Part shown: positions 16,852 through 32,305 of the stretch, piece by piece
Position numbering within the stretch: position 1 is the first letter of the stretch
Layout: each line of letters starts with the position of its first letter
DNA from: Candidatus Eiseniibacteriota bacterium
Lineage (GTDB): Bacteria > Eisenbacteria > RBG-16-71-46 > SZUA-252
Length of the DNA stretch: 64,000 nt
Direction of reading: 5' to 3'
NCBI GenBank assembly: GCA_003235575.1
Contig: QJVW01000115.1
Coordinates: 12,290-76,289 of the forward strand
Position numbers and translations under genes: made by a program
Notes under the pieces: generated by a model
What the model was told of the DNA's origin: nothing
Seen by the model: only the letters and a program-made list of their open reading frames with translations
Database searches by the model: none

Positions 16852-17280
16852 CTACGCTCGTTCGCTGATCGCCGCGGCCAGTCGGTTCTTCGCGCGTTCC
16901 AGCGCCCGCATCGCGCGCTCGCGGTCGATGGGTTCGTCGCCGCCGGCGCCGTCGTTCTGCAGCCGCTGCTGGGCCCGTTGGAGCGCCGACTTCGCGCGTT
17001 CCACGTCGATCGCGCCCGCGACCTCGGCCGCATCGGCCAGCACCGTCGCCCGATTTCCCGATACCTCCAGAAAGCCGCCGCTCACGGCGTAGAACGAACG
17101 CTTCCCCTCTTCGTCGCGGACTTCGAGACGGCCGGGGCGGAGCGAGGTGATCAGCGGGGCGTGATGGGCCAGGACTCCCAGGTACCCCTCGGAGCCCGGC
17201 GCCTGCAGCGCGGTCACGGGCGCCTCGAGCAGCAGGCGCTGCGGCGTCACCAGGCGGAACGTGAAGGTCGTCTCGGCCAT
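16852..17280 (-). CDS. atpC: F1Fo ATP synthase epsilon subunit; the real start is the internal MAETTFTF
   Basis: MAETTFTFRLVTPQRLLLEAPVTALQAPGSEGYLGVLAHHAPLITSLRPGRLEVRDEEG...; the N-terminal beta-sandwich plus C-terminal helices of epsilon. Confidence 0.9.
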   Translation of the reverse strand: MAETTFTFRLVTPQRLLLEAPVTALQAPGSEGYLGVLAHHAPLITSLRPGRLEVRDEEGKRSFYAVSGGFLEVSGNRATVLADAAEVAGAIDVERAKSALQRAQQRLQNDGAGGDEPIDRERAMRALERAKNRLAAAISERA

Positions 17281-17303
17281 CGCTGCGTCGCGGGAGGCTC
17301 GGC

Positions 17304-18752
<1,449 letters not shown>

Positions 18753-19604
18753 TTACTTGAGCGCCTCGGCGCCTGCCACGATCTCGACGAGTTCGCGGGT
18801 GATCGTGGCTTGCCGGGTCCGATTCATGTGCAGGGTCAGGTTCTGGATCATTTCGTTCGCGTTCTTCGTCGCCGATCCCATCGCCACCATGCGCGCGCCG
18901 TGCTCCGACGCCGCCGATTCGGCCATCGCCATGTAGAGGCGCATGGCCAGGACGTAGGGGACGAGCCGCTCGAGGATCACCTCCGGCGACGGCTCGTACA
19001 GGTAGTCGCGGGAGACCGCCGGTCCCGTCGCCGTCCGCCCCATCGGAAGGTACGGCTCGACCACGATCGTGCGATTCAGCGCGCTCTTGAAATGCGTGTA
19101 GACGAGGTCCACTTCATCGATCTCGCCGGCCTCGAAGCGCTCCGCCAGCGTGCGGCTCATCTCCTCCGCGAATTTCCACGAGGCCACGCCGCCCATCGAC
19201 GTGTTCGAGGCGAGGATGGTGGCCTTCCGTCGGCGGAAGTAGTCGTATCCCTTCTTGCCGATCAGCACCATCGAGGTAGGCACAGACGCCTCGCGTACGA
19301 TGCCCTCGACCATCTTGTTCAGGTTCACGTTGAAGGCGCCGCAAAGGCCGCGATCCGACGTGACGTGCACGATCGCACGGCGCTTCACGTCCCGGCGCGC
19401 GAACGCCGGGTGCATGATCTCTCCCGACGCGTTGGCCAGGTTCCCCAGCACCTCGCGCAGCTGCTCGCCGTACGGGCGCGCGGACTCCACGGCGGTCTGG
19501 GCGCGGCGCAACTTCGCCGCGGAGACCATCTCCATGGTCTTCGTGATCTGGGCCGTGCTCGCTACGGAGCGGATCCGGCGCCGGATGTCGCGAAGGGTCG
19601 CCAC
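18753..19604 (-). CDS. atpG: F1 ATP synthase gamma subunit
   Basis: MATLRDIRRRIRSVASTAQITKTMEMVSAAKLRRAQ; canonical gamma N- and C-terminal helices. Confidence 0.95.
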   Translation of the reverse strand: MATLRDIRRRIRSVASTAQITKTMEMVSAAKLRRAQTAVESARPYGEQLREVLGNLANASGEIMHPAFARRDVKRRAIVHVTSDRGLCGAFNVNLNKMVEGIVREASVPTSMVLIGKKGYDYFRRRKATILASNTSMGGVASWKFAEEMSRTLAERFEAGEIDEVDLVYTHFKSALNRTIVVEPYLPMGRTATGPAVSRDYLYEPSPEVILERLVPYVLAMRLYMAMAESAASEHGARMVAMGSATKNANEMIQNLTLHMNRTRQATITRELVEIVAGAEALK

Positions 19605-19608
19605 GTCG

Positions 19609-21129
19609 CTAGGCCATTCCCTTCTTCACGAAGGCGGCCTTGAACTGCTCCACGGCCTTCTTCAGCTTCGCCTCGATCGCGTCGGTCATTTCGTACTTGG
19701 CGCGGATGTCGTGCATCATGTCGCCGAATTCCTCGTCGAGGAACGCGAAGAAGCCGGTCTCGAACGCCCGGACCGAGGTCGTCGGCAGATCGTCGAGGTA
19801 GCCGTTCGTTCCGGCGTAGATGATGGCGACCTGTCGCTCCACCGACATCGGCTGGTATTGCCCCTGCTTCAGGAGTTCCACCATGCGCTCTCCGCGCGTC
19901 AGCTGCGCCTGCGTGGCCTTGTCGAGGTCCGAGCCGAACTGCGCGAAGGCCGCCAACTCGCGATACTGCGCGAGGTCGAGCCGGAGGCGTCCGGCGACTT
20001 TCTTCATGGCCTTCGTCTGCGCCTTGCCACCGACGCGCGAAACCGAAATACCGACGTTGATGGCGGGCCGCACGCCCGAGTAGAAGAGGTCGGTTTCCAG
20101 GAAGATCTGCCCGTCCGTGATCGAGATGACGTTCGTCGGAATGTACGCCGACACGTCGCCCGCCTGCGTCTCGATGATCGGAAGCGCGGTCAGCGACCCG
20201 GCGCCCAGCGAATCGTTCAGCTTCGCGGCGCGCTCCAGGAGGCGGGAGTGGAGATAGAACACGTCCCCCGGGAAGGCTTCGCGGCCCGGCGGCCGCCGGA
20301 GCAGCAGCGACAGCTGTCGGTACGACGCGGCGTGCTTCGACAGATCGTCGTAGATCACGAGCGCGTGCCCGCCGCGGTCCCGAACGTCCTCGCCGATGGC
20401 GCAGCCGGTGAAGGGCGCGATGAACTGAAGCGGCGCGGCTTCCGAGGCGCCCGCGTTGACGACCGTCGTGTATTCCATGGCGCCGTGGTCTTCCAGGATC
20501 TTCACGACCTTCGCGATCGTGAAGTCCTTCTGGCCGATGGCCACGTAGATGCAGCGGATGTCCCCGCCCTTCTGGTTGAGGATCGTGTCCACCGCGACCG
20601 CGGTCTTCCCCGTCTGGCGGTCCCCGATGATGAGCTCGCGCTGGCCCCGCCCGATCGGAATCATCGAATCGATGGCCTTCAATCCGGTCTGAACGGGCTG
20701 ATTCACGGGCTGACGATCCACGACGCCCGGAGCGCGGCCTTCGATCGGGTTGTACTTGTCCGTGACGATGGGGCCCTTGCCGTCGATCGGCTGGCCGATC
20801 GCGTTGATCACGCGCCCGGCCATCGCGTCCCCGACGGGCACCGAGGCGAGGCGCCCGGTGCGGCGCACCTCGTCGCCCTGCTTGATCTGTTCGGTGGAGC
20901 CGAAGAGCGCGATCCCGACGTTGTCCTCTTCGAGGTTCAGCACGACGCCGGTGACGTCGCCGGGAAAGAGCACCAACTCGCCGGCCATCGCGTCGTCGAG
21001 GCCCCACACGCGGGCGATCCCGTCGCCCACCTGGAGCACCGTCCCGACGCTCTCCATCTTGAGCCGGGACTCGTACCGCTCGAGCTCCTGCTCCAGTACC
21101 GCGCTGACTTCCTCGGGCTTGAACGCCAT
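19609..21129 (-). CDS. atpA: F1 ATP synthase alpha subunit
   Basis: 506 aa with the P-loop [20 protein letters not shown] and the alpha signature regions. Confidence 0.97.
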
Positions 21130-21132
21130 GCT

Positions 21133-21690
21133 TTAACCCCTGCCGTGTACCCGCGTCTGAAGGAGTTGACGGCGGATCCGCCAGAGCTCCGTCGCGAGGG
21201 TTCCGTCGATGAGCGTGTGATCCATCGCGACGACCGCGCCGCCCACGACGGCGGGGTCGGTCTCGCGCTGGAGGAGAATGCGATAACCCGTGCGCCCGCC
21301 GAGCGCCTTCGCGAGGCGGTCCGCCTGGGCGTCCGTGAACGGAACGGCGCTGCGCACCGTGGCGCGCACGATGCCTTGCGCCCGCTCCGCGATCTGAAAG
21401 AACTCCTGCGCGATGCTGGAGAGGTGATCCAGCCTCCCGCGCCGCAGCAGCAAGATCAGGAGTCCGTACACGCCGGGCCCCATGGAGGGTTTCCACCGGC
21501 GCTCCAGGAACTCCAGCTTCTCCGACCGGGCGATCGAAGGCGTTTCGAAAAACCGCCGGACGCGCACGTCGCGCTCGAATAGCAACCCCATCGCGCGCAG
21601 CTCCTCCTGGGTGCGGTCCAGATCACCCCGGCGCTGCGACAAGGACAGGAGGGCGCGCGCGTAGCGGCGCGAGAGACCGACCGAAATCAC
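21133..21690 (-). CDS. atpH: ATP synthase delta (OSCP) subunit
   Basis: 185 aa MISVGLSRRYARALLSL...; OSCP family pattern. Confidence 0.85.
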   Translation of the reverse strand: MISVGLSRRYARALLSLSQRRGDLDRTQEELRAMGLLFERDVRVRRFFETPSIARSEKLEFLERRWKPSMGPGVYGLLILLLRRGRLDHLSSIAQEFFQIAERAQGIVRATVRSAVPFTDAQADRLAKALGGRTGYRILLQRETDPAVVGGAVVAMDHTLIDGTLATELWRIRRQLLQTRVHGRG

Positions 21691-22178
21691 CCGGCGGCCT
21701 CCACGTCGGCCAGGAACGCATCGACCAGCTTCTTGTGCTTCTCCGCGGTGAGCTCTTCCTGGACCACCTTGCCCGCGATGCCCATGGCGAGGGCCACGAC
21801 CTCGTTGCGAAGCGTCACCTGCGCCTTGTCGCGCTCCATGGCGATATCCTCGCGGGCGCGCGTCAGGATCTCCTGCGCTTCCTTGCGCGCCAGATCGCGC
21901 AGCTCCGTGCCGACCCGCTGCCCTTCGGCGACGGCCGCCTGGATGCGCTCGCGGCTCTCCGCTTCGATCTTCTTCAGATGCGCTTCGTATTCCTGCTTCA
22001 ACCCCGCGACCGCCGCCTTTTCCTGCTCGATCCGGTCGTACTCCGCTTGGATGCGATCACGGCGTTCCTTCATCGGCGGATAGATGATCGCCATGAAGGC
22101 GCCGCGCACCAGGAAGAAGAAGACCGCGAACGAAATCGCGTGGGCGAGGAGCTGATTCCAGTGAACGAATTGATCCAT
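21687..22178 (-). CDS. atpF: ATP synthase Fo subunit b
   Basis: 163 aa with an N-terminal TM helix followed by a long charged coiled coil (EAHLKKIEAESRERIQAAVAEGQ...). Confidence 0.85.
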   Translation of the reverse strand: MDQFVHWNQLLAHAISFAVFFFLVRGAFMAIIYPPMKERRDRIQAEYDRIEQEKAAVAGLKQEYEAHLKKIEAESRERIQAAVAEGQRVGTELRDLARKEAQEILTRAREDIAMERDKAQVTLRNEVVALAMGIAGKVVQEELTAEKHKKLVDAFLADVEAAG

Positions 22179-22237
22179 GTCGTGCCTCGGGCACGGCGCG
22201 CGTCCGACCGCGGGGGCCGGCCGCTATCGCCGCCGCC

Positions 22238-22522
<285 letters not shown>

Positions 22523-23926
22523 TCAATGGGCATGACCGCTCTCCTCGTGTCCGTGCGCCTCGTGCGGCAGCATCATGTAGAGGTAGACGGTCGTCAGAAG
22601 CGCGAAGATCAACGCCTGAACGATGGCGGTCAGGGTCTGAAGCAACATGAACAGCGCCGTGATCCCCGCCATCGGCGGCACGGCCAGCGCGACGAGGCTC
22701 GCCTTCAAGCAAAGCGCCGCCACGCCGACGAAGACGACGATCAACGTGTCCTCGCCGAAGATGTTGCCGAAGAGTCGGCAGGAGAGGCTGACCGGCTTCA
22801 CCAGTTCCCCCAGGATGTGAACGGGGATCATGACCGGGAGCATGGCGAAGCCGACGATGTCGCGGGGCGAACCGGCGAGATGGTCGAGGTAGCCGAGCGG
22901 CCCCAGGTTGATCACGCCGGAGATCTGCACGTAGAGGAACGTCACCAAGGCGAGCGCGAGCGTCACGTCGAGGGTCGAGGTGGACGACTTCAGGCCCGGG
23001 ATGATGCCGATCAGGTTCATCATCAGGATGTAGAAGAAGATCGCCATGATGAATGGAAAATACTTGTGCAGGTGCCTGCCGAGCATGCCGCCGCAGACGT
23101 CCTCCATGCTCTCGATGATCCATTCGATCGCGTTCTGAAGTTGGCCGGGGACCGGCGAGGGCTTGCGCATGCCGATCCACGTCAGCCCCAGGAACAGAAA
23201 GCCCGCGAGCCAGGCGAAGACGAGATACTCGTTGTCGTGCATCCAGCGGACGACCGGCGCGTCGGGGAAGTAGTCGTTCGCGATCGTGACCCAGTTGGGA
23301 AGGTGCTCGCCGCCACCCTCGTGCTCGCCGCCGTCGTGTGCTCCCTCGGCATGCGTCGCGTCCGTGTGGGCGGCCTCGGCCTGCTCGCGTTCGGCGGCCG
23401 CCGGCTCCTCCGTGAGGGGGGCGCCGACTTCGGTGGCCGTCGCGGCATCCCCGGCGCCGTGGTCCTGCGCGAACGCGCGGACGGCGACGGGAAGCGCGAG
23501 GAGTCCCGCGATGAGAATGGTCGCGGCGAGCTTGGCCGAGCTCCGGGCGGGAGCTGCCGTTGTCGTTGCCCGCCGCGATGAATGCGCGTCACCGGCCGAG
23601 AAGGCCAGCATGATCGATTTGAGTACGAGAGCCAGGAGCGGCATCGAAAGCCCAGCGACGAGGGGCAGGAATTCCGCGCCGCGCCACTGCAGTACCGCGA
23701 ACGCGCCCCCGTAGACGATCACGAACTTCGCGGTCCCCACGAGGAACCCCTTCGCGCGCATCCAATCGCCCGTCGTCCGCGTCGGTGCGACCACGGCTCC
23801 TGTGAAGAGTTTCACAAGCCTGGTGAGAAAGAAGAAATTCGCGGCTGCCAAGATCTGCCCCGCGGCGAGCGAGAGCGCTGCGTTCGGATGGCGCGGCAAC
23901 AGAACCGCGACGAGCGCCGCGGCCAT
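22523..23926 (-). CDS. atpB: ATP synthase Fo subunit a, with an in-frame N-terminal AtpI-like module; an internal ATG at about 23611 starts a signal-peptide-like sequence
   Basis: The C-terminal roughly 250 aa are subunit a (LGRHLHKYFPFIMAIFFYILMMNLIGIIPG...CRLFGNIFGEDT...). The N-terminal roughly 105 aa resemble AtpI (4 TM helices). No stop codon separates the two modules. MLAFSAGDAHSSRRATTTAAPARSSAKLAATILIAGLLALPVAVRAFAQD looks like a subunit-a presequence. A His/Glu-rich linker (HTDATHAEGAHDGGEHEGGGEH) follows. Confidence 0.85.
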   Translation of the reverse strand: MAAALVAVLLPRHPNAALSLAAGQILAAANFFFLTRLVKLFTGAVVAPTRTTGDWMRAKGFLVGTAKFVIVYGGAFAVLQWRGAEFLPLVAGLSMPLLALVLKSIMLAFSAGDAHSSRRATTTAAPARSSAKLAATILIAGLLALPVAVRAFAQDHGAGDAATATEVGAPLTEEPAAAEREQAEAAHTDATHAEGAHDGGEHEGGGEHLPNWVTIANDYFPDAPVVRWMHDNEYLVFAWLAGFLFLGLTWIGMRKPSPVPGQLQNAIEWIIESMEDVCGGMLGRHLHKYFPFIMAIFFYILMMNLIGIIPGLKSSTSTLDVTLALALVTFLYVQISGVINLGPLGYLDHLAGSPRDIVGFAMLPVMIPVHILGELVKPVSLSCRLFGNIFGEDTLIVVFVGVAALCLKASLVALAVPPMAGITALFMLLQTLTAIVQALIFALLTTVYLYMMLPHEAHGHEESGHAH

Positions 23927-23993
23927 GAACCACGAAACGCGCAGCGCTCGGGAAAGTAGCGTGGGATTGGATGCGGCGAACCGGCGCAGAACT

Positions 23994-24287
23994 CTAGTCC
24001 TCCCGTTGAGCCATTCTCACGATCTTGACCGTTTCGCGCACTCCGGCGACGAAACCGAGTCCCAGCAGCGTCAGCTGCAGCCAGGGCTCTGTCCGGAACT
24101 TCTTATCGAGATAGTTCCCGAGGAAGTACCCGACGATTGGCGCCAGAGCGAGGATGAACGGGATCGAGGACAAGAGTCCGATTTGCCGCCAATCCGTGAC
24201 CTTGTTGGGTCGCTTCTCGGTCACTTCACGGCCTCCGCGCTGGGCGGCTGGAGCGCGTCCCCCACGAACGCGTTCCGAATTGGACAA
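23994..24287 (-). CDS. atpZ: AtpZ/AtpR-type small membrane protein (ATPase_gene1 family), the first gene of the atp operon
   Basis: WRQIGLLSSIPFILALAPIVGYFLGNYLDKKFRTEPWLQLTLLGLGFVAGVRETVKI is a two-TM hairpin characteristic of the family found upstream of atpI. TTG start. Confidence 0.7.
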   Translation of the reverse strand: MSNSERVRGGRAPAAQRGGREVTEKRPNKVTDWRQIGLLSSIPFILALAPIVGYFLGNYLDKKFRTEPWLQLTLLGLGFVAGVRETVKIVRMAQRED

Positions 24288-24348: not shown

Positions 24349-25039
24349 CGGCAAAGAGGCTGTGGGGCGGATCACCCAGCCCGACACTTGATGCGCTCAA
24401 CATAATAGAGGGGTCCCGCGGAAACCCGCCCGGGCGCTCAACGGCGCCGCGCGGACGAGCCGCAATGGACCCCTAAGTAGATGGCGGGACGCCTCTTCGC
24501 CTCCTCGGCTTCACCACACCACGGCCCCGACTCCGCAGTGCTCTCCCCCAAACAGAGGACGCCCCGCCAAACCTATCGAATCAAGTAACTTACAAACAAC
24601 GCCATCCTGTTCCCTTGGAATCGCATCAACCGTGCCCATGTAGGGCTCCTGGGCTCAATCGGATTAATGTATTGCAAAATATTACGTTATGGATCTTCCA
24701 CGCCCGCCCGATGGGCGGATACGGGGGGAAGCCGTATCCCGGCGGCGACGCTCCAAGGCGCCATGGACGATCGATCGTCCGTAAATGCTTGTAATGAATA
24801 CACTAAGCGACCGTCCACCTCCGGACTCGCCGGCGTCCACGCCGGCTGCGCCTGCCGGATCTCTCGGTCGGGCATCACGGGAATGGCCCGCACCGCGCCC
24901 TTCCCAGTGGGGCCCCGATTCGGCCTGTGTTCCCGGCACAGAACGGTGGCCCGCATGCCGATCTCTGCTGGGGAACCCTACTCGCGCGCGTCTCATACGG
25001 ATCCGCGCGCGGATATCCCTTTGGCTCGGGAACGGTGCT

Positions 25040-25609
25040 ATGACGCGGGGCAATTTCGGAAACCACTGGATGGCCGAGGAGCGTGAGAAGCGGCTTGTGC
25101 TCGCGGCGCAGCAGGGAGACCGACAGGCGTTTCTATCGCTGGTAAAGCACTACCAGCGTCAGGTCTATGGCCTCGCCTACGCGCTGACGCGGGACCACGA
25201 CCACGCCGCGGATCTTGCCCACGACGCGTTTCGTCGCGCTTGGGCGGGCATCAAGGGCATCCCGGAGGGAAAGCGGTTCTTCCCCTGGCTCCTACGCACC
25301 ACGCGCAACCTCTCGCTCACCCACGCGCGGCGCCGCGCGGGCGAGCCGACATCCATGACCGCGCTGGGGCGAATTCCGGTCGCCCCCGAGAGCGAGGACG
25401 CCGACGCCTACCGGCTGATGCTCGAAACGCTCCGAGAGCTTCGTCCCGACGAGCAAATGGCCCTGGCCCTGCGCGTCGTGGAGCGGCTGCCGTACGAGGA
25501 GATCGCACGACTGCTCGACCACTCCGCGGGGATCACGCTGGCGCGTCTGTCGTCGGCGCGCGGCGTCCTGCTCGCGCGGGCGGGCCAAGGTGGTGGGGGG
25601 AGCGTGTGA
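25040..25609 (+). CDS. ECF-type RNA polymerase sigma factor (sigma-70 regions 2 and 4); likely start at MTRGN (25040) or MAEERE (about 25070)
   Basis: LVLAAQQGDRQAFLSLVKHYQRQVYGLAYALTRDHDHAADLAHDAFRRAW (region 2) and LPYEEIARLLDHSAGITLARLSSARGVL (region 4 HTH). The track ORF from 24785 carries an implausible Pro/Arg-rich N-terminus. Confidence 0.85.
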   Translation: MTRGNFGNHWMAEEREKRLVLAAQQGDRQAFLSLVKHYQRQVYGLAYALTRDHDHAADLAHDAFRRAWAGIKGIPEGKRFFPWLLRTTRNLSLTHARRRAGEPTSMTALGRIPVAPESEDADAYRLMLETLRELRPDEQMALALRVVERLPYEEIARLLDHSAGITLARLSSARGVLLARAGQGGGGSV

Positions 25610-27063
25610 TTCACTTGACGCTCCATCAGCTTTCCGCGCACCTCGACGGCGAGCTCGCCGAGGCATCCACGGAACTCGTGCGCCGTCACTTGTCGCAGTG
25701 TTCCGAATGCACGGAGCGCTTCGCGCTCATCGAGGCGCAGGAGGAGATCCTGGAATGCCTCCTGAACCACGACCCCGGCGAAGCGTTCTTCGACTACTTC
25801 GTGGACAACTTCGACTTCAGCAGCCGGAAAAGCGCGCCGCGACGGTGGCCGCGACCGGCCGCGACCCCGATCGACGCTCGCGATCCGGAGGGCGAAGGCG
25901 TCTCCCCCACGGAATCCGCGGAGTCCCCCTTCGCCGCCTCCGCCACGCCGATCGAACACGACCCGGCGCGCTTGATTCCGAATCAGGCAACGCCCGTCGG
26001 CGAGCCGTCGCCGCCACCGCCGTCCATGTCGGAATCGGAGCCCGTTTCCGTCGAGCACCGAAACCCGGCTCCGATCCAAGCGCCCATCGCCGTTCAGGTC
26101 CCGGCCCCGCGCCCGGTGAGCGTCGCCGCACCCGTGCCCGTCGCGCCGCGGGTTGCCGAGTCGGGTCGGCCCGCCTCGCCGACCCTCTACGGCCGCCGCG
26201 CGGAGGATCGGAAGCCGCCGGCCCGATGGCCGATGGCCGCCGGATGGATCGTCGCGGGAATCGTCGGCGTCATCGCGTTGAGCGTCGCCTTCGTGGGCAC
26301 GCGGCAGCGAGTAGCGCCGCTCCCCATTCCGACGGTCGCCACGCCACCGCCGCCCGAGGTCGTGTCGGACGCGCCGGCGGAGCAGGTGGCCACGGTGTCG
26401 CAACCCGAGGAAGCAATCGCGACGGCCCCTGCGGATACGCTTGTCCCGCCCGTGGAGGTCGCCGCCGTCGTGGATGCCGCAGCCGATCCCGAGCCGGCAG
26501 CTCCGTCCGCTCCCACGGTGGAGACGCGCCCAAAGGTGGAGCCGTCCAAGAGCGTCGAGCCGCCCCCCGCGCGGGAACCGGCACGGCGGGCGCCGATCGA
26601 GCCCCCGCCGGCGCCGCGGCCGCCCCGGCACATGGTGCCGGTGAGAACGATCATCACGAAGACGACGACCGCCCCCGAACCATCCGCTCCGACACCCACA
26701 CCGTCGGCGCCCTCTTCGTCGGAGCGAGACCGGCTCCCGTCCCCTTCCGCGGCTACGGTCGCGCGGGAGATGGCCCACGCCAAGGACCTGAGCCTGGTCG
26801 CCGCCCGCACGATGACGGCGCCGGCGTTCGAGTCGGCCGCGGAGGCCTGGGAAACGCTCCTGCCCCGGTTGTCGGAATCCCCTGAGAGCGAAGCGATCGC
26901 CCGCCGGGAGATCGCGCAGGCGCGATTCCAGGCATGGGCTGTCGAGGGGACCCCTGGCCGCAGGGAACTCGCCATCACCGCGGCACGCGCCTACCTCCTC
27001 TATGCCCCGCCGGGCCCCGACCGCGACCAAGGTTGGACCTGGCTGGGCCGCCTCAAGCGGTAG
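25606..27063 (+). CDS. Anti-sigma factor: N-terminal zf-HC2 (HxxxCxxC), single TM helix, and a long Pro-rich extracytoplasmic region with a TPR-like C-terminus
   Basis: The GTG start overlaps the sigma-factor TGA (GTGA overlap). VIHLTLHQLSAHLDGELAEASTELVRRHLSQCSECTERF is the zinc-finger anti-sigma motif. TM segment WPMAAGWIVAGIVGVIALSVAFVG. PAPRPPRHMVP is one of the Pro-rich repeats. Confidence 0.8.
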   Translation: MIHLTLHQLSAHLDGELAEASTELVRRHLSQCSECTERFALIEAQEEILECLLNHDPGEAFFDYFVDNFDFSSRKSAPRRWPRPAATPIDARDPEGEGVSPTESAESPFAASATPIEHDPARLIPNQATPVGEPSPPPPSMSESEPVSVEHRNPAPIQAPIAVQVPAPRPVSVAAPVPVAPRVAESGRPASPTLYGRRAEDRKPPARWPMAAGWIVAGIVGVIALSVAFVGTRQRVAPLPIPTVATPPPPEVVSDAPAEQVATVSQPEEAIATAPADTLVPPVEVAAVVDAAADPEPAAPSAPTVETRPKVEPSKSVEPPPAREPARRAPIEPPPAPRPPRHMVPVRTIITKTTTAPEPSAPTPTPSAPSSSERDRLPSPSAATVAREMAHAKDLSLVAARTMTAPAFESAAEAWETLLPRLSESPESEAIARREIAQARFQAWAVEGTPGRRELAITAARAYLLYAPPGPDRDQGWTWLGRLKR

Positions 27064-27211
27064 GGACCACTTCGGTTCGGGCGGACGGACCGTAGGCCGA
27101 CGCCGCGGAGGCACCCCCTCAAGACCTCAAGAACGCGGTCCTTAGAGCCGATGGATCGTTTCGAGGCACATCCGCATGCAGTCAACTGCAATCACCTGAG
27201 AAGCGAGCGAC

Positions 27212-29623
27212 ATGGGCGTCATGGACGAAGGAATCCTTCGGGAGTTCCTTGCCGAGAGCCTGGAAGGGCTGGGGCAAGTGGAGCGCGATTTGGTTGCGCT
27301 CGAACGCGATCCCGGCGACGTCGCCAAGATCGGCGGCGTCTTTCGCGTGTTCCACACGATCAAGGGAACGTGCGGATTCTTCGGCTTCACGAAACTCGCC
27401 GCGGTAACGCACGCCGGCGAGAGCCTCCTGAGCCGGCTTCGTGGCGGCGAGCGGGCGCTCTCGCCGGAGATCGTGAACGCCCTCCTCGCTTTGGTCGACA
27501 CGGTCCGAGCCATTCTCGGCAGGATCGAATCGTCGAAGGAAGAAGGAGAGGGCAATTTCGCCCGCCTCATCCAAAGGCTCAACCGCCTGGAGGAGGAAGG
27601 CGCCACCGAAGCACCACCGGCCGCTACGGAACCGCCGCCCGCGCCGACGGCTGCGGGCGCCGCGACGGAGCCGCCCGCTCCCGAAGCGGACACGGCGGTC
27701 ATCCCGCGTGACGGCGGGCTCTTCGGACCCCTCATCGCGAGCGGAAGACTCGACCCCGAAGCGGTCGCGATCGCCGCGCAGCAGCAGCGGCTGGGCGACC
27801 CCCGGCGTCTGGGCGAGATCTTGGTGGACCATGGCGCGCTGCAACCCCAGGACATCCTGGACGCGCTCCTCGTGCGGAGCGAAATGGCGGCCAGCACCCT
27901 CGCGGAGTCGAGCATCCGGGTCGACGTTCACCTCCTGGATCTCCTGATGAACCTTGTGGGCGAACTGGTTCTCGCCCGCAACCAGCTGCTTCAAAACGTC
28001 GCCTCGCAGGATCACGCGGATCTACCCGGAACGGTGCAGCGGTTGAATCACATCACGACCGAGCTGCAGGAGCGGATCATGAAGACCCGCATGCAGCCGA
28101 TCGGCAACGTATGCAACAAGCTCCCGCGCTTGGTGCGCGACATCGCGTCCGCCTGCGGGAAGCAGGTCCGGCTGGAGCTGGAGGGGGTCGATACCGAACT
28201 GGACCGCACGATCATCGAGGCGATTCGCGATCCGTTGACGCACCTCATCCGCAACGCCATCGACCACGGCATCGAGACGACGGAAGCGCGCGTCGCGAAC
28301 GGCAAATCGCCCGAAGGTCTGCTCGTGGTTCGCGCCTTCCACGAAGGCGGGAAGGTGCACCTCGAGGTCGAGGACGACGGCGCGGGGCTGTCCCTCGAGT
28401 CCATTCGCGAACGGGCGCTCCGCCAGAACCTCATTCCGGCGGACCGCGCGGCGCGCATGACGGAGCGCGACTGGTACAACGTGATCTTCCTGCCCGGGTT
28501 CACGACCGCCGCGCGCGTGACGAACGTCTCCGGGCGCGGCGTGGGCATGGACGTGGTGAAGACGAACGTCGAGCGGATCGGCGGCGCGATCGACGTCGAC
28601 TCGAGGCCCGGACACGGCACCACGATGCGGATTCGGATTCCCCTCACGCTCGCCATCGTGCCCGCGCTCGTTATCTCGGTGGACGGCGAGCGCTACGCCA
28701 TTCCGCAGGTGAACCTGATCGAGTTGGTCCGCGTGGAGCGCGCCGAGGCGTCCACGCGCCTTGTGACCGCGTACGACGTGCCGGTGCTTCGCTACCGCGA
28801 GCGGCTCCTTCCCCTGCTCGACCTCCGAGCCATTCTCGGCACCGCGCCGACGCCCGCGCGCGCGGATGGCCCGGAGGGTGACGCGATCTCGATCGTCGTG
28901 CTCCACGCCGACGGTCTCACGGTCGGCCTCGTCGTGGACACCATCGAAGCGTCGCAGGAGATCGTGGTGAAGCCACTGGGCGAGCCGCTTCGCCAAATTC
29001 CCGTGTTCGCGGGCGCGACCATCCTCGGCGACGGCGCGGTCGCGCTCATCCTCGACGTCCCCGGGCTGGCCCGCCACGCCAGGATCTCCCGCTCGGACGG
29101 CGAGATCGAGGAGAGCGCGCCGGCGGAGAACGTGGACCGCGGCGCCATGGATCGCCAGACCCTGGTGGTGTGCACGGTCGGCCCGCGCTGGACCGTCGCG
29201 ATCCCGCAGACGCAGATCGCGCGGCTGGAGGAATTCCGCCGGGCGGACGTGGAGCGGTCGGGCGATCGCGCCATCATCCAGTACCGGGGCGGTCTTCTCC
29301 CGCTCGTGTCCCTTGGCGCGCTGCTCGATCTGGGCGGAACGCACGCGGCGACCGACATCGAGTGGATCGGCGACGCCGACCCCCTCCGCGTGGTGGTTCA
29401 CGAGCGCGAGGGACGCGCCGTCGGTCTGATCGTGGAGGCCGTCGTGGAGATCGTCGAAGAGCGCGTGGCGCCGGGAGGCGGCGACGCATCCACCGGGTTC
29501 GCCGGCGCGGTGGTGGTGCGCGGATCGGTCACGGAATTGATCGACCTCGAAGGGTTGCTGCGGCAGGCGGACGTTCATCGCCACAGCGCGCTGGCGGCGT
29601 CGGCGGAAGGGGGCGCCCGATGA
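27212..29623 (+). CDS. cheA: Chemotaxis histidine kinase CheA with two C-terminal CheW-like (P5) domains
   Basis: P1/Hpt FRVFHTIKGTCGFFGF; P3 dimerisation VDVHLLDLLMNLVGELVLARNQL; P4 N-box HLIRNAIDHGIE, G1 VEDDGAGL, G2 GRGVGMDVV, then GTTMRIRIPLTLAI; CheW domain 1 (ISIVVLHADGLTVGLVVD...) and CheW domain 2 (QTLVVCTVGPRWTVAIP...LIVEAVVEIVE). Confidence 0.95.
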   Translation: MGVMDEGILREFLAESLEGLGQVERDLVALERDPGDVAKIGGVFRVFHTIKGTCGFFGFTKLAAVTHAGESLLSRLRGGERALSPEIVNALLALVDTVRAILGRIESSKEEGEGNFARLIQRLNRLEEEGATEAPPAATEPPPAPTAAGAATEPPAPEADTAVIPRDGGLFGPLIASGRLDPEAVAIAAQQQRLGDPRRLGEILVDHGALQPQDILDALLVRSEMAASTLAESSIRVDVHLLDLLMNLVGELVLARNQLLQNVASQDHADLPGTVQRLNHITTELQERIMKTRMQPIGNVCNKLPRLVRDIASACGKQVRLELEGVDTELDRTIIEAIRDPLTHLIRNAIDHGIETTEARVANGKSPEGLLVVRAFHEGGKVHLEVEDDGAGLSLESIRERALRQNLIPADRAARMTERDWYNVIFLPGFTTAARVTNVSGRGVGMDVVKTNVERIGGAIDVDSRPGHGTTMRIRIPLTLAIVPALVISVDGERYAIPQVNLIELVRVERAEASTRLVTAYDVPVLRYRERLLPLLDLRAILGTAPTPARADGPEGDAISIVVLHADGLTVGLVVDTIEASQEIVVKPLGEPLRQIPVFAGATILGDGAVALILDVPGLARHARISRSDGEIEESAPAENVDRGAMDRQTLVVCTVGPRWTVAIPQTQIARLEEFRRADVERSGDRAIIQYRGGLLPLVSLGALLDLGGTHAATDIEWIGDADPLRVVVHEREGRAVGLIVEAVVEIVEERVAPGGGDASTGFAGAVVVRGSVTELIDLEGLLRQADVHRHSALAASAEGGAR

Positions 29624-30057
29624 GCGAGGAACGCGTGCTGTGCACGTTCCGCGTCGCCGAGCATCTCCTCGGGCTCGACATTTCCGTCATCCAGGAGGTG
29701 TTGCGCCAGCAGGAGATCACGAGGCTTCCGCTCGCGGCGCCCGCGGTGCGCGGCGTCATCAATCTGCGCGGGCGGATCGTGCCCGCCCTCGATCTCCGAC
29801 GCTGCCTCGATCTCCCCGTCGCCGAGGGGGGGCGTCACGACGCGAACATCGTGGCGCGCGAACGGGAGGATGCGCCCGTGAGCCTGCTCGTGGACGAAAT
29901 CGGGGACGTCGTCACGGTGCCCCTGGAGTTGTGCGAAGGAGCTCCGGAAACCATGCGCGCCGCGGCGCGCGAGTTGATCCGCGGGGTGTTTCCCGTTCAC
30001 GACCGGCTGCTTCTCGAACTGGACCTGGGAAAGGTCCTGCGGGTGGCCTACGCCTAG
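29620..30057 (+). CDS. cheW: Chemotaxis coupling protein CheW (the ATG overlaps the cheA stop: ATGA)
   Basis: 145 aa [60 protein letters not shown]. The track ORF 29170 reads through from inside cheA. Confidence 0.9.
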
Positions 30058-30106
30058 ACACCGGGAGGCCCGGCACGGCCGGCCGTCACGGAAGGAGCGA
30101 ACTGTC

Positions 30107-31858
30107 ATGGTTCTCACGATTCGTCGCCAACTGGTCGGGAGCGCGCTCTTGGCGCTTCTGGGGTTCGTCATCTTCGGCGTCGTGGCCTGGTTCACGCTGA
30201 ACGAACTCAAGGTCAACGGCCCGCGTTACCACCGCATCGTCCAGGGCAAGGACCTGGTGGCCGACACCGTGCCGCAATCGGCCACCTTGATCGAGTCCTA
30301 CCTGGGCGTCCACCAGATGCTCGGCGAGACCGACCGGCGACGGCTGGACGACCTGATCCGCGAAAGCCAGCAGCTCCGCGTGCAATTCGAGGAGCGTCAC
30401 CAGCACTGGGAGCAAACGCTTCCCCCGGGCCCCCTGCGCCAGGCGCTCCACGAGCGCGCCTATCCCCCCGCGGCGGAGTTCCTGCGGGTGCGCGACGACG
30501 CGTTCATTCCCGCGGTGCGCGGAGGCGACGAGGAAACGGCGCGGCAGATCGCGGAAGGCGTTCTCAAACCGCTGTACGAGCAGCACATGAAGGCCGTCAT
30601 GGAAGTCGTGCAGCTGGCGACCACGCAGACGGAGCACGAGGAGGCCGAGGCGCTGGCGATCGCCCAGCAGCGGTCCACCCTGGTCCCGCTGGTCGGCCTG
30701 CTCCTGGCGGCGATCACGCTCGCCATCGGGCTGATCCTCTCTCGTCGGATCGTGCGCGCCATCGAGCAGATGCGCCGGGTCGCGGAGCGGACCGCCCGCG
30801 GGGACCTCACGTCCCGCGTCCAGTACACGGCGAAGGACGAGCTCGGAGACCTGGCCGCGTCGACGAACGAAATGGTCGAGTCGCTGCGCGAGGTGCTGTC
30901 GCACATCGGCGAGCGCTCGGTGACGCTGGCCACCGCCTCGGAGGAACTCTCCACCGTCTCCACGCAAATGATCGGAAGCGCCGAGGAAACGTCGCGCCAG
31001 GCGAGCACGGCCTCGGCCGGATCGGAGCAGGTGAGCCGCAGCGTGGAGAGCGTCTCGGCGTCCGTGGAGGAGATGATCGCGAGCATTCAGGAGATCTCCA
31101 AGAACACCAGCGAGGCGGCGCGCGTCGCCACGGTGGCTTCGGGAGAGGCGGACGTCACGAACGCCGCCGTGAACAAGCTCGGCACCAGCAGCGCGGAGAT
31201 CGGCAAGGTGGTGCAGGTCATCAACACCATCGCCCAGCAGACCAACCTCCTGGCGCTGAATGCGACGATCGAGGCCGCCCGCGCGGGCGAGGCCGGAAAG
31301 GGATTCGCGGTGGTCGCCAACGAGGTGAAGGAACTCGCCAACGAGACCGCGACCGCGACGAAGGACATCGGCCGGAAGATCGAGGCCATTCAGGCGGACA
31401 CGACGGACGCGATTCAGGCCATCGGGAAGATCAGCGAGACGATTCAGCAGATCACGGATATCTCCAACTCCATCGCGACCGCGCTGGAACAACAGCTTTC
31501 CACGTCGGGTGAGATCGGCCGGAACCTCGCCGAGGCGGCCCGCGGGAGCGCCGAGATCAGCGGCGGCATCGTGGCGGTCGCCGAGATCGCCCGGGATACC
31601 GCCGGCAGCAGCGAAAGCACGCAGAAGGCGGCGGAGGAACTGGCGCGGTTGGCAGCGGAGCTCCGCGGACTCACGCAGCGGTTTCACTACGCCGAACAGG
31701 GCGTCGACGCGCCGGTCCCCGAGGGGCCGTTCGCGGCGACCACGCCGGGCACGGTGGTGGCCTGGGATGCCGGCCGGGCGGCGGCGCAGCGACCTACGAA
31801 CGAGCGGGACGAGAGACGTCGCGCCGAGGACCGGGACACGCTGGCGGATGCCGGTTGA
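30107..31858 (+). CDS. Methyl-accepting chemotaxis protein (2 TM, roughly 150 aa periplasmic four-helix-bundle-like sensor, HAMP, MCP signalling domain)
   Basis: TM1 [19 protein letters not shown]; TM2 [17 protein letters not shown]; HAMP; highly conserved tip [33 protein letters not shown]. Confidence 0.93.
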
Positions 31859-31918
31859 TCTGACGTCCCGACGAAGCGCGCCGGCGCCGGCCGCCGGAGC
31901 ACGCGGAAGAGGAGGAGC

Positions 31919-32305
31919 ATGATGAAGGCCATGGTGGTAGACGACTCGAGCGCGATGCGCGCGATTCTCACGAAGCAGCTCCGGGAACTGGGCTTCGACG
32001 TCGTGCAGGCGTCGAACGGACAGGAGGCGCTTCGCCTGCTTCACGAAGATGGCGTCGTGGATCTCGTCCTCCTCGATTGGAACATGCCGGGGATGGACGG
32101 GGCCGAAGTGCTGTCGCTGTTTCGCTCCGAGCCCGCCTACCGCGAGATGCGGGTGATGATGGTGACGACGGAGAGCGAGATGTCGCAGGTGACGGTGGCG
32201 TTGGAGGCGGGGGCGAACGAATACCTCATGAAGCCGTTCGACCGCGAGTCCCTCGTCGAGAAGCTCATCCTGCTCGGGATGGATCCGAGCGGCCACACCG
32301 TTTAG
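31919..32305 (+). CDS. cheY: Chemotaxis response regulator CheY
   Basis: 128 aa MMKAMVVDDSSAMRAILTKQL...DLVLLDWNMPGMDG...VMMVTTESE...EYLMKPF; single REC domain. Confidence 0.9.
   Translation: MMKAMVVDDSSAMRAILTKQLRELGFDVVQASNGQEALRLLHEDGVVDLVLLDWNMPGMDGAEVLSLFRSEPAYREMRVMMVTTESEMSQVTVALEAGANEYLMKPFDRESLVEKLILLGMDPSGHTV

Follow-up and report, generated by a model that had tools for sequence, protein, structure and literature searches.

In a window of 64,000 nucleotides from contig QJVW01000115.1 of a Candidatus Eiseniibacteriota bacterium, the gene for subunit a of the F-type ATP synthase is joined to that of AtpI. At 22523..23926, on the minus strand, the open reading frame (ORF) listing contains a single ORF of 467 codons that opens with ATG and has no in-frame stop codon, and its product comprises an AtpI-like module followed by subunit a. 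A sequence-only reading of the window had described this arrangement and left three explanations for it: a genuine fusion, translation of subunit a from an internal start codon in the same frame, or a stop codon lost to a sequencing error. The single ORF with both families stands, with the correction that the gene lies on the minus strand. Our results make it very likely that this is a genuine, lineage-wide atpI-atpB fusion, in which one cistron encodes a single polypeptide of about 488 amino acids (aa), with a probable CTG start and a fifth transmembrane helix (TM5) acting as an adaptor between the two modules. The elements of the fused gene, in the direction of translation, are the following:

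23999..24004, minus strand: GGGAGG Shine-Dalgarno (SD) sequence for the fused gene, inside the last atpZ codons; duplex about -10 kcal/mol
23987..23989, minus strand: probable true start codon, CTG, 9 nt after GGAGG
23600..23989, minus strand: AtpI module with four transmembrane helices (PF03899, hhalign, AlphaFold2); N and C termini predicted to be cytoplasmic
23927..23986, minus strand: N-terminal AtpI extension RRFAASNPTLLSRALRVSWF, upstream of the first canonical start
23924..23926, minus strand: first canonical ATG, the start used in the sequence-only reading and in public gene calls; no SD (duplex -2.6 kcal/mol)
23609..23611, minus strand: internal in-frame ATG (Met106) at the end of AtpI helix 4, proposed in the sequence-only reading as a start for subunit a
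23531..23599, minus strand: positively charged cytoplasmic loop 4, SAGDAHSSRRATTTAAPARSSAK, in which RRA is nearly invariant
23468..23530, minus strand: TM5, LAATILIAGLLALPVAV, with a signal-peptidase-like c-region (RAFA); proposed in-to-out topology adaptor or internal signal sequence
23303..23467, minus strand: low-complexity linker of 55 aa (residues 154-208), predicted to be periplasmic, rich in Ala, Gly, Glu, His, Thr and Pro
22526..23302, minus strand: Fo subunit a itself, starting at the invariant LPNW motif and reaching the C terminus (PF00119, TIGR01131)
22526..22567, minus strand: C-terminal His/Glu-rich tail, PHEAHGHEESGHAH
22523..22525, minus strand: stop codon of the fused gene

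The identity of the two modules was established by profile comparisons. In the ORF read from ATG 23926, ATP-synt_A (PF00119) matched residues 236-449 with 171.7 bits (cut-off 33.9), and the subunit a model TIGR01131 was passed with 128.4 bits (cut-off 102.6). The motif LPNW...NDY.P.NPVV.WM, the invariant opening of subunit a, is present, and the stator arginine R384 (22775..22777), which lies in SLSCRLFGN, was itself invariant among 26 aligned sequences and also among 93. At the N-terminal side, ATP-synt_I (PF03899) matched residues 3-94 with 21.6 bits (E 2.9e-4), just below its cut-off of 25.1. Using hhalign, the module of the clade to which the window belongs (clade 1, defined below) was aligned with the stand-alone AtpI proteins of three unfused relatives at 96.1% probability (E 3e-9), and with the module of the second clade at 95.8% probability (E 8e-9). 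The AtpI-like character that had been assigned to the roughly 105 N-terminal residues was thus confirmed, as was the succession of a His/Glu-rich linker and subunit a behind them. Within the AtpI module K39, T42, K67, Y72, G73 and G92 are invariant, and N30 is found in at least 90% of the sequences.

An AlphaFold2 model built on a 93-sequence alignment presents, in this order, four confident AtpI helices, a disordered loop, a helix, a disordered linker and the a fold. The four AtpI helices have a predicted local distance difference test score (pLDDT) of 89-97 in this model; for helices placed at residues 11-30, 35-66, 71-101 and 107-131 the values are 81-93, and hydrophobic segments were also read from the sequence. 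The best Foldseek matches of the model were a subunits (9its_Z, E 6.7e-4, probability 1.00), at TM-scores of 0.2-0.4 that are low because the a domain of the model is only moderately confident (block means 46-88, against about 95 for the AtpI module), probably as a consequence of modelling a without the c-ring and the b subunits. No AtpI homologue was found among solved structures. According to its predicted topology, the polypeptide of about 488 aa would consist of four parts, namely AtpI, a positively charged cytoplasmic loop, TM5, and an acidic His-rich periplasmic linker together with a complete subunit a.

Conservation of the fused frame

A protein search of a 5.8-billion-protein collection returned 630 relatives, whose best 120 clusters were assessed. 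Both modules were present in 113 of these 120 clusters with more than 80% coverage each, in proteins of 408-527 aa sharing 58-83% identity with that of the window. At the genome level, 80 loci were obtained when each GTDB species was represented by one genome; almost all of them carry the label Candidatus Eisenbacteria. All their stop-to-stop frames were translated and searched with hidden Markov models for the AtpI module and the a domain. Both modules shared one uninterrupted frame at 69 loci, were encoded by separate genes at three and were cut by a contig end at eight; setting the latter aside, the fusion was present in 69 of 72 informative species genomes. Such conservation, in 113 of 120 clusters and 69 of 72 species genomes, implies that a high G+C content has not kept this reading frame open by chance. 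The length of the linker varies widely among the relatives and the reading frame is always preserved.

In a neighbour-joining tree without outgroup the fused loci formed two deep clades: clade 1, comprising the window and loci L001-L032, and clade 2, comprising L033-L080, whose proteins start with MGLEFLARVRR. Between the clades, identity of the a domains is only about 35-45%. The fusion is therefore conserved over two deep clades of Candidatus Eisenbacteria, a result that supports the first of the three explanations listed above.

The only unfused relatives, all of them distant, were L051 (2408..2900), L062 (1000..1500) and L064 (2531..3000), in which the stop codon of atpI overlaps a TTG start of atpB (a TTGA-type overlap). 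TM5 and any signal peptide are missing from these loci, in which subunit a begins 10-35 residues before the LPN motif. The stand-alone AtpI of L062 passes the Pfam ATP-synt_I threshold alone, with 28.6 bits. The long linker is missing in L051 and L064; L062 retains a His/Glu-rich N-tail of subunit a (THAEEAHEVVEHAAEHGAEHGGG), which implies that such an acidic, His-rich tail can occur independently of the fusion. The sequence-only reading had named a stop codon between the modules in related genomes as evidence against it. Such a stop does occur in these three loci, but it does not point to an error, because the extra helix is absent from all three and the long linker from two of them, so that they represent an unfused architecture.

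A phmmer search with residues 1-160 as a single sequence against a 1.8-billion representative library gave eight matches, too few to map the fusion beyond the phylum. For some of the fused proteins, precomputed Pfam annotations list both PF03899 and PF00119, and an exact look-up of the window protein sequence found no match on record. Where public databases give the relatives a name, it is "F0F1 ATP synthase subunit A" from Candidatus Eisenbacteria or from mislabelled metagenome-assembled genomes; this label, together with a start placed at the internal ATG, hides the AtpI module and the probable CTG start. Our literature search for an AtpI-a fusion or for the ATP synthase of Eisenbacteria found no paper describing the fusion. 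Taken singly, AtpI and subunit a are typical of their families, within a canonical operon; the novelty lies in the architecture, that is, the lack of a stop codon between AtpI and a, plus an adaptor helix and a linker, conserved across a candidate phylum.

Translation start and competing explanations

Several lines of evidence place the start of the fused gene upstream of ATG 23926. The 20 codons that precede this ATG encode a conserved NLLxRSLRxSW with synonymous codon variation, and the residue aligned to "M1" is A, F, L, I or V in many relatives. The hhalign matches to clade 2 and to stand-alone AtpI begin inside the extension, and helix 1 of the AlphaFold2 model starts with high confidence at extended residue 11. 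When the N-terminal module was isolated with its extension (127 aa), it reached 29.4 bits against the PF03899 cut-off of 25.1 and covered profile positions 1-99 of 99; the full 488-aa protein scored 24.5 bits, just below that cut-off. A GGAGG lies within the last atpZ codons in the window and in every clade-1 relative examined, and CTG, 7-10 nt past it, was the best-spaced in-frame candidate in the window and in 18 relatives that have no ATG there. An ATG 12-13 nt past the SD was found in 10 of the 11 L020-L032 loci, L024 having ATC; L009 was left unscored, a different GGAGG having been picked there. The codon between the atpZ stop and CTG is variable, and the CTG and the SD are conserved. Judged by this conservation, the true start is probably CTG 23989, 21 codons upstream of ATG 23926, and the start taken in the sequence-only reading is probably an internal Met, since both AtpI homology and conservation run up to the CTG. 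The candidate N terminus would then be (M)RRFAASNPTLLSR, the alternative being MAAALVAVLLPR. A weak CTG start would fit the low copy number of subunit a.

At 11 loci (L001-L007, L012, L014, L017 and L025) atpZ is in frame with the fused gene, and TAG plus one codon precede the CTG. The window has one extra base, which puts atpZ and the fused gene in different frames; read-through of the atpZ stop into atpI, which we considered, is therefore not required. The junction suggests coupling by termination and reinitiation rather than stop read-through.

Three other explanations for the long frame have to be weighed against a genuine fusion. An error of sequencing or assembly, either a lost stop or a frameshift, could join two genes arranged as in L051, L062 and L064, where the stop of atpI and the start of atpB overlap and a one-base change would suffice. 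The same uninterrupted frame, however, occurs in 69 independently assembled species genomes and in more than 100 protein clusters from different projects, the differences in linker length are always in frame, the fused forms have a helix and a linker that the unfused ones lack, and the junction bears no homopolymer or low-quality signature. We therefore reject this option, which is extremely improbable. It could also be argued that the AtpI-like region is a decaying, non-functional remnant and the ORF in effect a subunit a with a long meaningless leader, given the weak Pfam ATP-synt_I scores (21.6-29.4 bits) and the failure of Pfam to detect the module in clade 2. A remnant would not be expected to stay free of stops and conserved down to about 35% overall identity, nor to keep the invariant residues of the module within clades, profile-level homology across clades and to stand-alone AtpI, and a confidently predicted four-helix bundle (pLDDT about 90), and we find this explanation very unlikely.

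A more serious competitor is that subunit a is mainly or additionally initiated at ATG 23611 as a precursor with a signal peptide of long n-region, the AtpI-a read-through product being a by-product. This ATG is in frame and is the only ATG, GTG or TTG between residues 106 and 229; 99 of 113 close homologues share its Met; and the peptide that follows it, MLAFSAGDAHSS...VRAFA, exactly as quoted in the sequence-only reading, has n-, h- and c-regions resembling those of a Sec signal peptide. The alignment of the long subunit a model PRK13419 from residue 143 also suggests that a stand-alone a with an N-terminal hydrophobic segment exists elsewhere. Against this, the 19 nt upstream of the ATG pair poorly with the anti-SD sequence (-1.5 kcal/mol in the window, -5.8 to +1.9 in 28 relatives), whereas the duplex at the atpE start reaches -11.4 kcal/mol in the window and a mean of -12.4 kcal/mol over 79 loci, from which it follows that this lineage uses strong SD sequences. 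The Met is replaced by L, S, G or A in the other 14 homologues, and in clade 2 the segment that connects helix 4 to the a domain contains no Met at all. Furthermore, two of the three stand-alone AtpI proteins, those of L051 and L062, have a Met aligned with Met106 ("...VLKALGRML" and "...LLKVVGRMV") and continue for about 20 further residues, which assigns Met106 to helix 4 of AtpI. The "textbook presequence" seen in the sequence-only reading is thus a fair description of the h- and c-regions, but its first residues are the end of an AtpI helix. Finally, because atpI has no stop codon, ribosomes starting upstream must read into subunit a and would make the fusion in any case. With no SD at this site and a Met that is dispensable and part of AtpI, initiation at ATG 23611 found no support, and we consider it unlikely.

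The adaptor helix and the fate of the polypeptide

The genuine fusion faces a topological problem. The N terminus of subunit a in bacterial Fo is periplasmic, and AtpI is predicted to end in the cytoplasm; one in-to-out helix is thus needed between them, and TM5 would provide it. The charge distribution is consistent with this topology, as it would put the linker on the periplasmic side of the membrane and loops 2 and 4, like the N terminus, on the cytoplasmic side. Loop 4 has on average 3.8 K+R versus 0.3 D+E in clade 1 and 2.5 versus 0.05 in clade 2, its residues R118, R119 and A120 are at least 90% conserved, and AlphaFold2 predicts it to be disordered. TM5 follows as an uncharged stretch with a median of 21 residues in clade 1 and 20 in clade 2, modelled as a helix at extended residues 150-176 (pLDDT about 70). 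The linker behind it (sequence across the junction: ...VAVRAFAQDHGAGD...) has the opposite charge, with 5.7 D+E versus 1.2 K+R in clade 1 and 6.7 versus 1.8 in clade 2; its median length is 38 aa in clade 1 and 43 aa in clade 2 (range 9-68), its composition 28-30% Ala, 12-14% Gly, 11-13% Glu and 7-9.5% His, and its pLDDT 29-45. In support of the adaptor role, TM5 is absent from the unfused relatives.

The C terminus of subunit a also ends in a His/acidic tail, MLPHEAHGHEESGHAH, whose pattern MLPH(E/D)xHxH...HAH is shared by both fused clades; in the unfused relatives the His-rich tail is shorter, starts with MLPHE or MMPHE and lacks the terminal HAH. By composition, both ends of subunit a would thus carry titratable or metal-binding segments.

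The end of TM5 resembles a signal peptidase I site. The window shows the full pattern, with an n-region RR..R..K, the hydrophobic core LAATILIAGLLAL and a c-region P..RAFA/QD (the slash marks the predicted cut) that supplies a helix breaker and small residues at -3 and -1; the c-region reads PVAVRAFA/QD. Since the Ala-rich composition makes a shuffle of A-x-A motifs uninformative, the motif was judged by column conservation. In clade 1 the columns hold P146 in 77 of 121 sequences, A149 in 71 and A151 in 76, followed by S or Q, that is, P(-6) A(-3) x A(-1). In clade 2, G or P is found at about -6, T or S at -3 and A at -1 (23 of 37; small residues in 31 of 37). In a member with a short linker, P0101, the sequence is ...APAAWA/DEGGMEHLPNW, and a cut there would leave the mature protein with an N terminus closely resembling that of an unfused a. 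In the window, the predicted N terminus after cleavage is FAQDHG... or QDHGAGDAATATEVGAPLTEEPAAAER. From these sequence features we place somewhat better than even chances on signal peptidase I cutting after A-x-A at the end of TM5 and yielding AtpI-TM5 plus a mature a; that AtpI stays tethered to subunit a has a little less than an even chance. A Tat (twin-arginine translocation) signal of the type S/T-R-R-x-F-L-K was considered for the near-invariant SRRA and rejected, as about 12 polar or charged residues (TTTAAPARSSAK) precede the hydrophobic core.

Known proteins offer partial parallels. The 346-residue model of the long subunit a, PRK13419, is alike in that its match, beginning at residue 143, spans TM5, the linker and a; unlike it, the fused protein scores 134 bits against a cut-off of 460 and is not a member, and the PRK13419 proteins stand alone, without AtpI. 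The cytochrome b/c1 precursor FbcH of Bradyrhizobium was reportedly found, around 1991, to be split at an internal signal peptide. It is said to be likewise a multi-spanning protein with an internal signal-like helix ending in A-x-A and a second subunit whose N terminus is periplasmic, although its partners differ and its cleavage is reported as demonstrated, that of AtpI-a being predicted. The yeast mitochondrial Atp6 presequence is removed by Atp23, this leader being of 10 residues and not an assembly factor, and the mycobacterial b-delta fusion joins two structural stator subunits that need no topology adaptor. These two are precedents for a removable leader on a and for a lineage-wide fusion of atp neighbours, respectively.

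A number of points weigh against a fusion built and processed in this way. The fusion was read from the genes of an uncultured phylum, whose genomes may hold a second, unfused atpB elsewhere. The TM5 regions of the two clades gave no alignment in hhalign, and the clades may descend from one ancestral fusion or from independent fusions, between which we favour neither. CTG starts are unusual in bacteria, and the one proposed here was deduced only from conservation. In the AlphaFold2 model the AtpI module is not docked on a (predicted template modelling score 0.41), so that the model gives no support for a direct contact. As for cleavage, the flanks of TM5 and the linker are rich in Ala, Gly and Ser, so that chance should produce A-x-A-like motifs fairly often; Pro occupies the aligned +1 in about 16% of the clade-1 sequences; and TM5, with its roughly 20 uncharged residues, is long enough to stay in the membrane as a stable anchor instead of being cleaved off as a signal.

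Operon context and meaning of the fusion

The fused gene is the second of its operon, whose remaining genes are these:

23994..24287, minus strand: atpZ-like gene ("ATPase_gene1" small membrane protein), the first gene of the operon (PF09527, 54.1 bits, cut-off 26.6)
23996..23994, minus strand: stop codon of atpZ, TAG
16852..22471, minus strand: operon downstream of the fused gene
22238..22471, minus strand: atpE (c), by Pfam
21687..22178, minus strand: atpF (b), by Pfam
21133..21690, minus strand: atpH (delta), by Pfam (OSCP, 130 bits)
19609..21129, minus strand: atpA, by Pfam
18753..19604, minus strand: atpG, by Pfam
17304..18743, minus strand: atpD, by Pfam
within 16852..17400, minus strand: atpC, identified by reading the translation

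The gene order atpZ, atpI::atpB, E, F, H, A, G, D, C is that of a canonical F-type operon. An N-ATPase operon (atpDCQRBEFAG, without delta, with beta and epsilon first and AtpQ and AtpR before a) was considered in view of the atpZ- and atpI-like genes and rejected, because atpH (delta) is present and the order is that of the F-type. Two long antisense ORFs, at 19255..21582 (plus strand, 775 aa) opposite atpA and at 22484..23581 (plus strand, 365 aa) opposite the fused gene, are typical artefacts of high G+C content and not genes, their translations being Arg/Gly/Asp/His-rich nonsense. Upstream of the operon, on the opposite strand (24785..32305, plus), lies an extracytoplasmic function (ECF)-type sigma factor with a Sigma70_r2/r4 profile, followed by a long Pro/Ala-rich ORF and then by apparent genes, assigned by eye, for CheA, CheW, a methyl-accepting chemotaxis protein and CheY.

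Compared with AtpB (PF00119, TIGR01131), the product has a full-length a domain with the RLFGN stator Arg, encoded at the canonical place before c, b, delta, alpha, gamma, beta and epsilon; it differs in the approximately 230 residues (AtpI, TM5 and linker) that precede this domain and in the His/Glu-rich segments at both of its ends. The N-terminal module shares with AtpI/UncI (PF03899; CGL160 or Atp1 in plants and cyanobacteria) four predicted helices and a position directly upstream of subunit a, but it lacks a stop of its own and is connected to a through a fifth helix and a linker. As a rule, AtpI is a separate protein of low abundance that is not stoichiometric in the purified enzyme. 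It is the least understood product of the atp operon, dispensable in E. coli and required for some c-rings.

We propose that translation of the fused gene would start at the conserved CTG 23989, served by the SD embedded in the end of atpZ. TM5 would be the in-to-out adaptor that makes the fusion topologically possible and may also serve, as an internal signal, to export the long acidic tail at the N terminus of a. Whether the product is cleaved or stays tethered, being fused entails that AtpI and a are made 1:1 and inserted next to each other; the fusion would therefore force equal, side-by-side production, at a low level set by the weak start codon. AtpI/UncI is described as needed for the assembly of some c-rings and as contacting c subunits directly (PMC8904574, which cites Brandt 2013; PMC4383579, which cites work on P. 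modestum), and a role in c-ring or Fo assembly is known for the AtpI of P. modestum and A. woodii. Extrapolating from this role, AtpI could act in cis in the fused protein, the c-ring being nucleated or held beside the stator subunit against which it will run.

A bolder and rather doubtful version of this idea is that AtpI became a built-in part of the Fo stator precursor, possibly a permanently tethered Fo domain, so that a c-ring factor is held by a, with the His/Glu ends as proton or metal antennae at the mouths of the half-channels. Were this true, the lineage would naturally trap the AtpI-a-c assembly intermediate, of which no structure is known so far. Independently of this, a phylum-wide fusion is "Rosetta-stone" evidence that AtpI acts with subunit a, in a 1:1 ratio and at the same membrane site, and the fused protein represents a natural construct with which to capture AtpI and its partners by expression and cryo-electron microscopy. 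Furthermore, it offers a clean example of how membrane proteins whose ends have incompatible topologies can fuse by gaining one adaptor helix.

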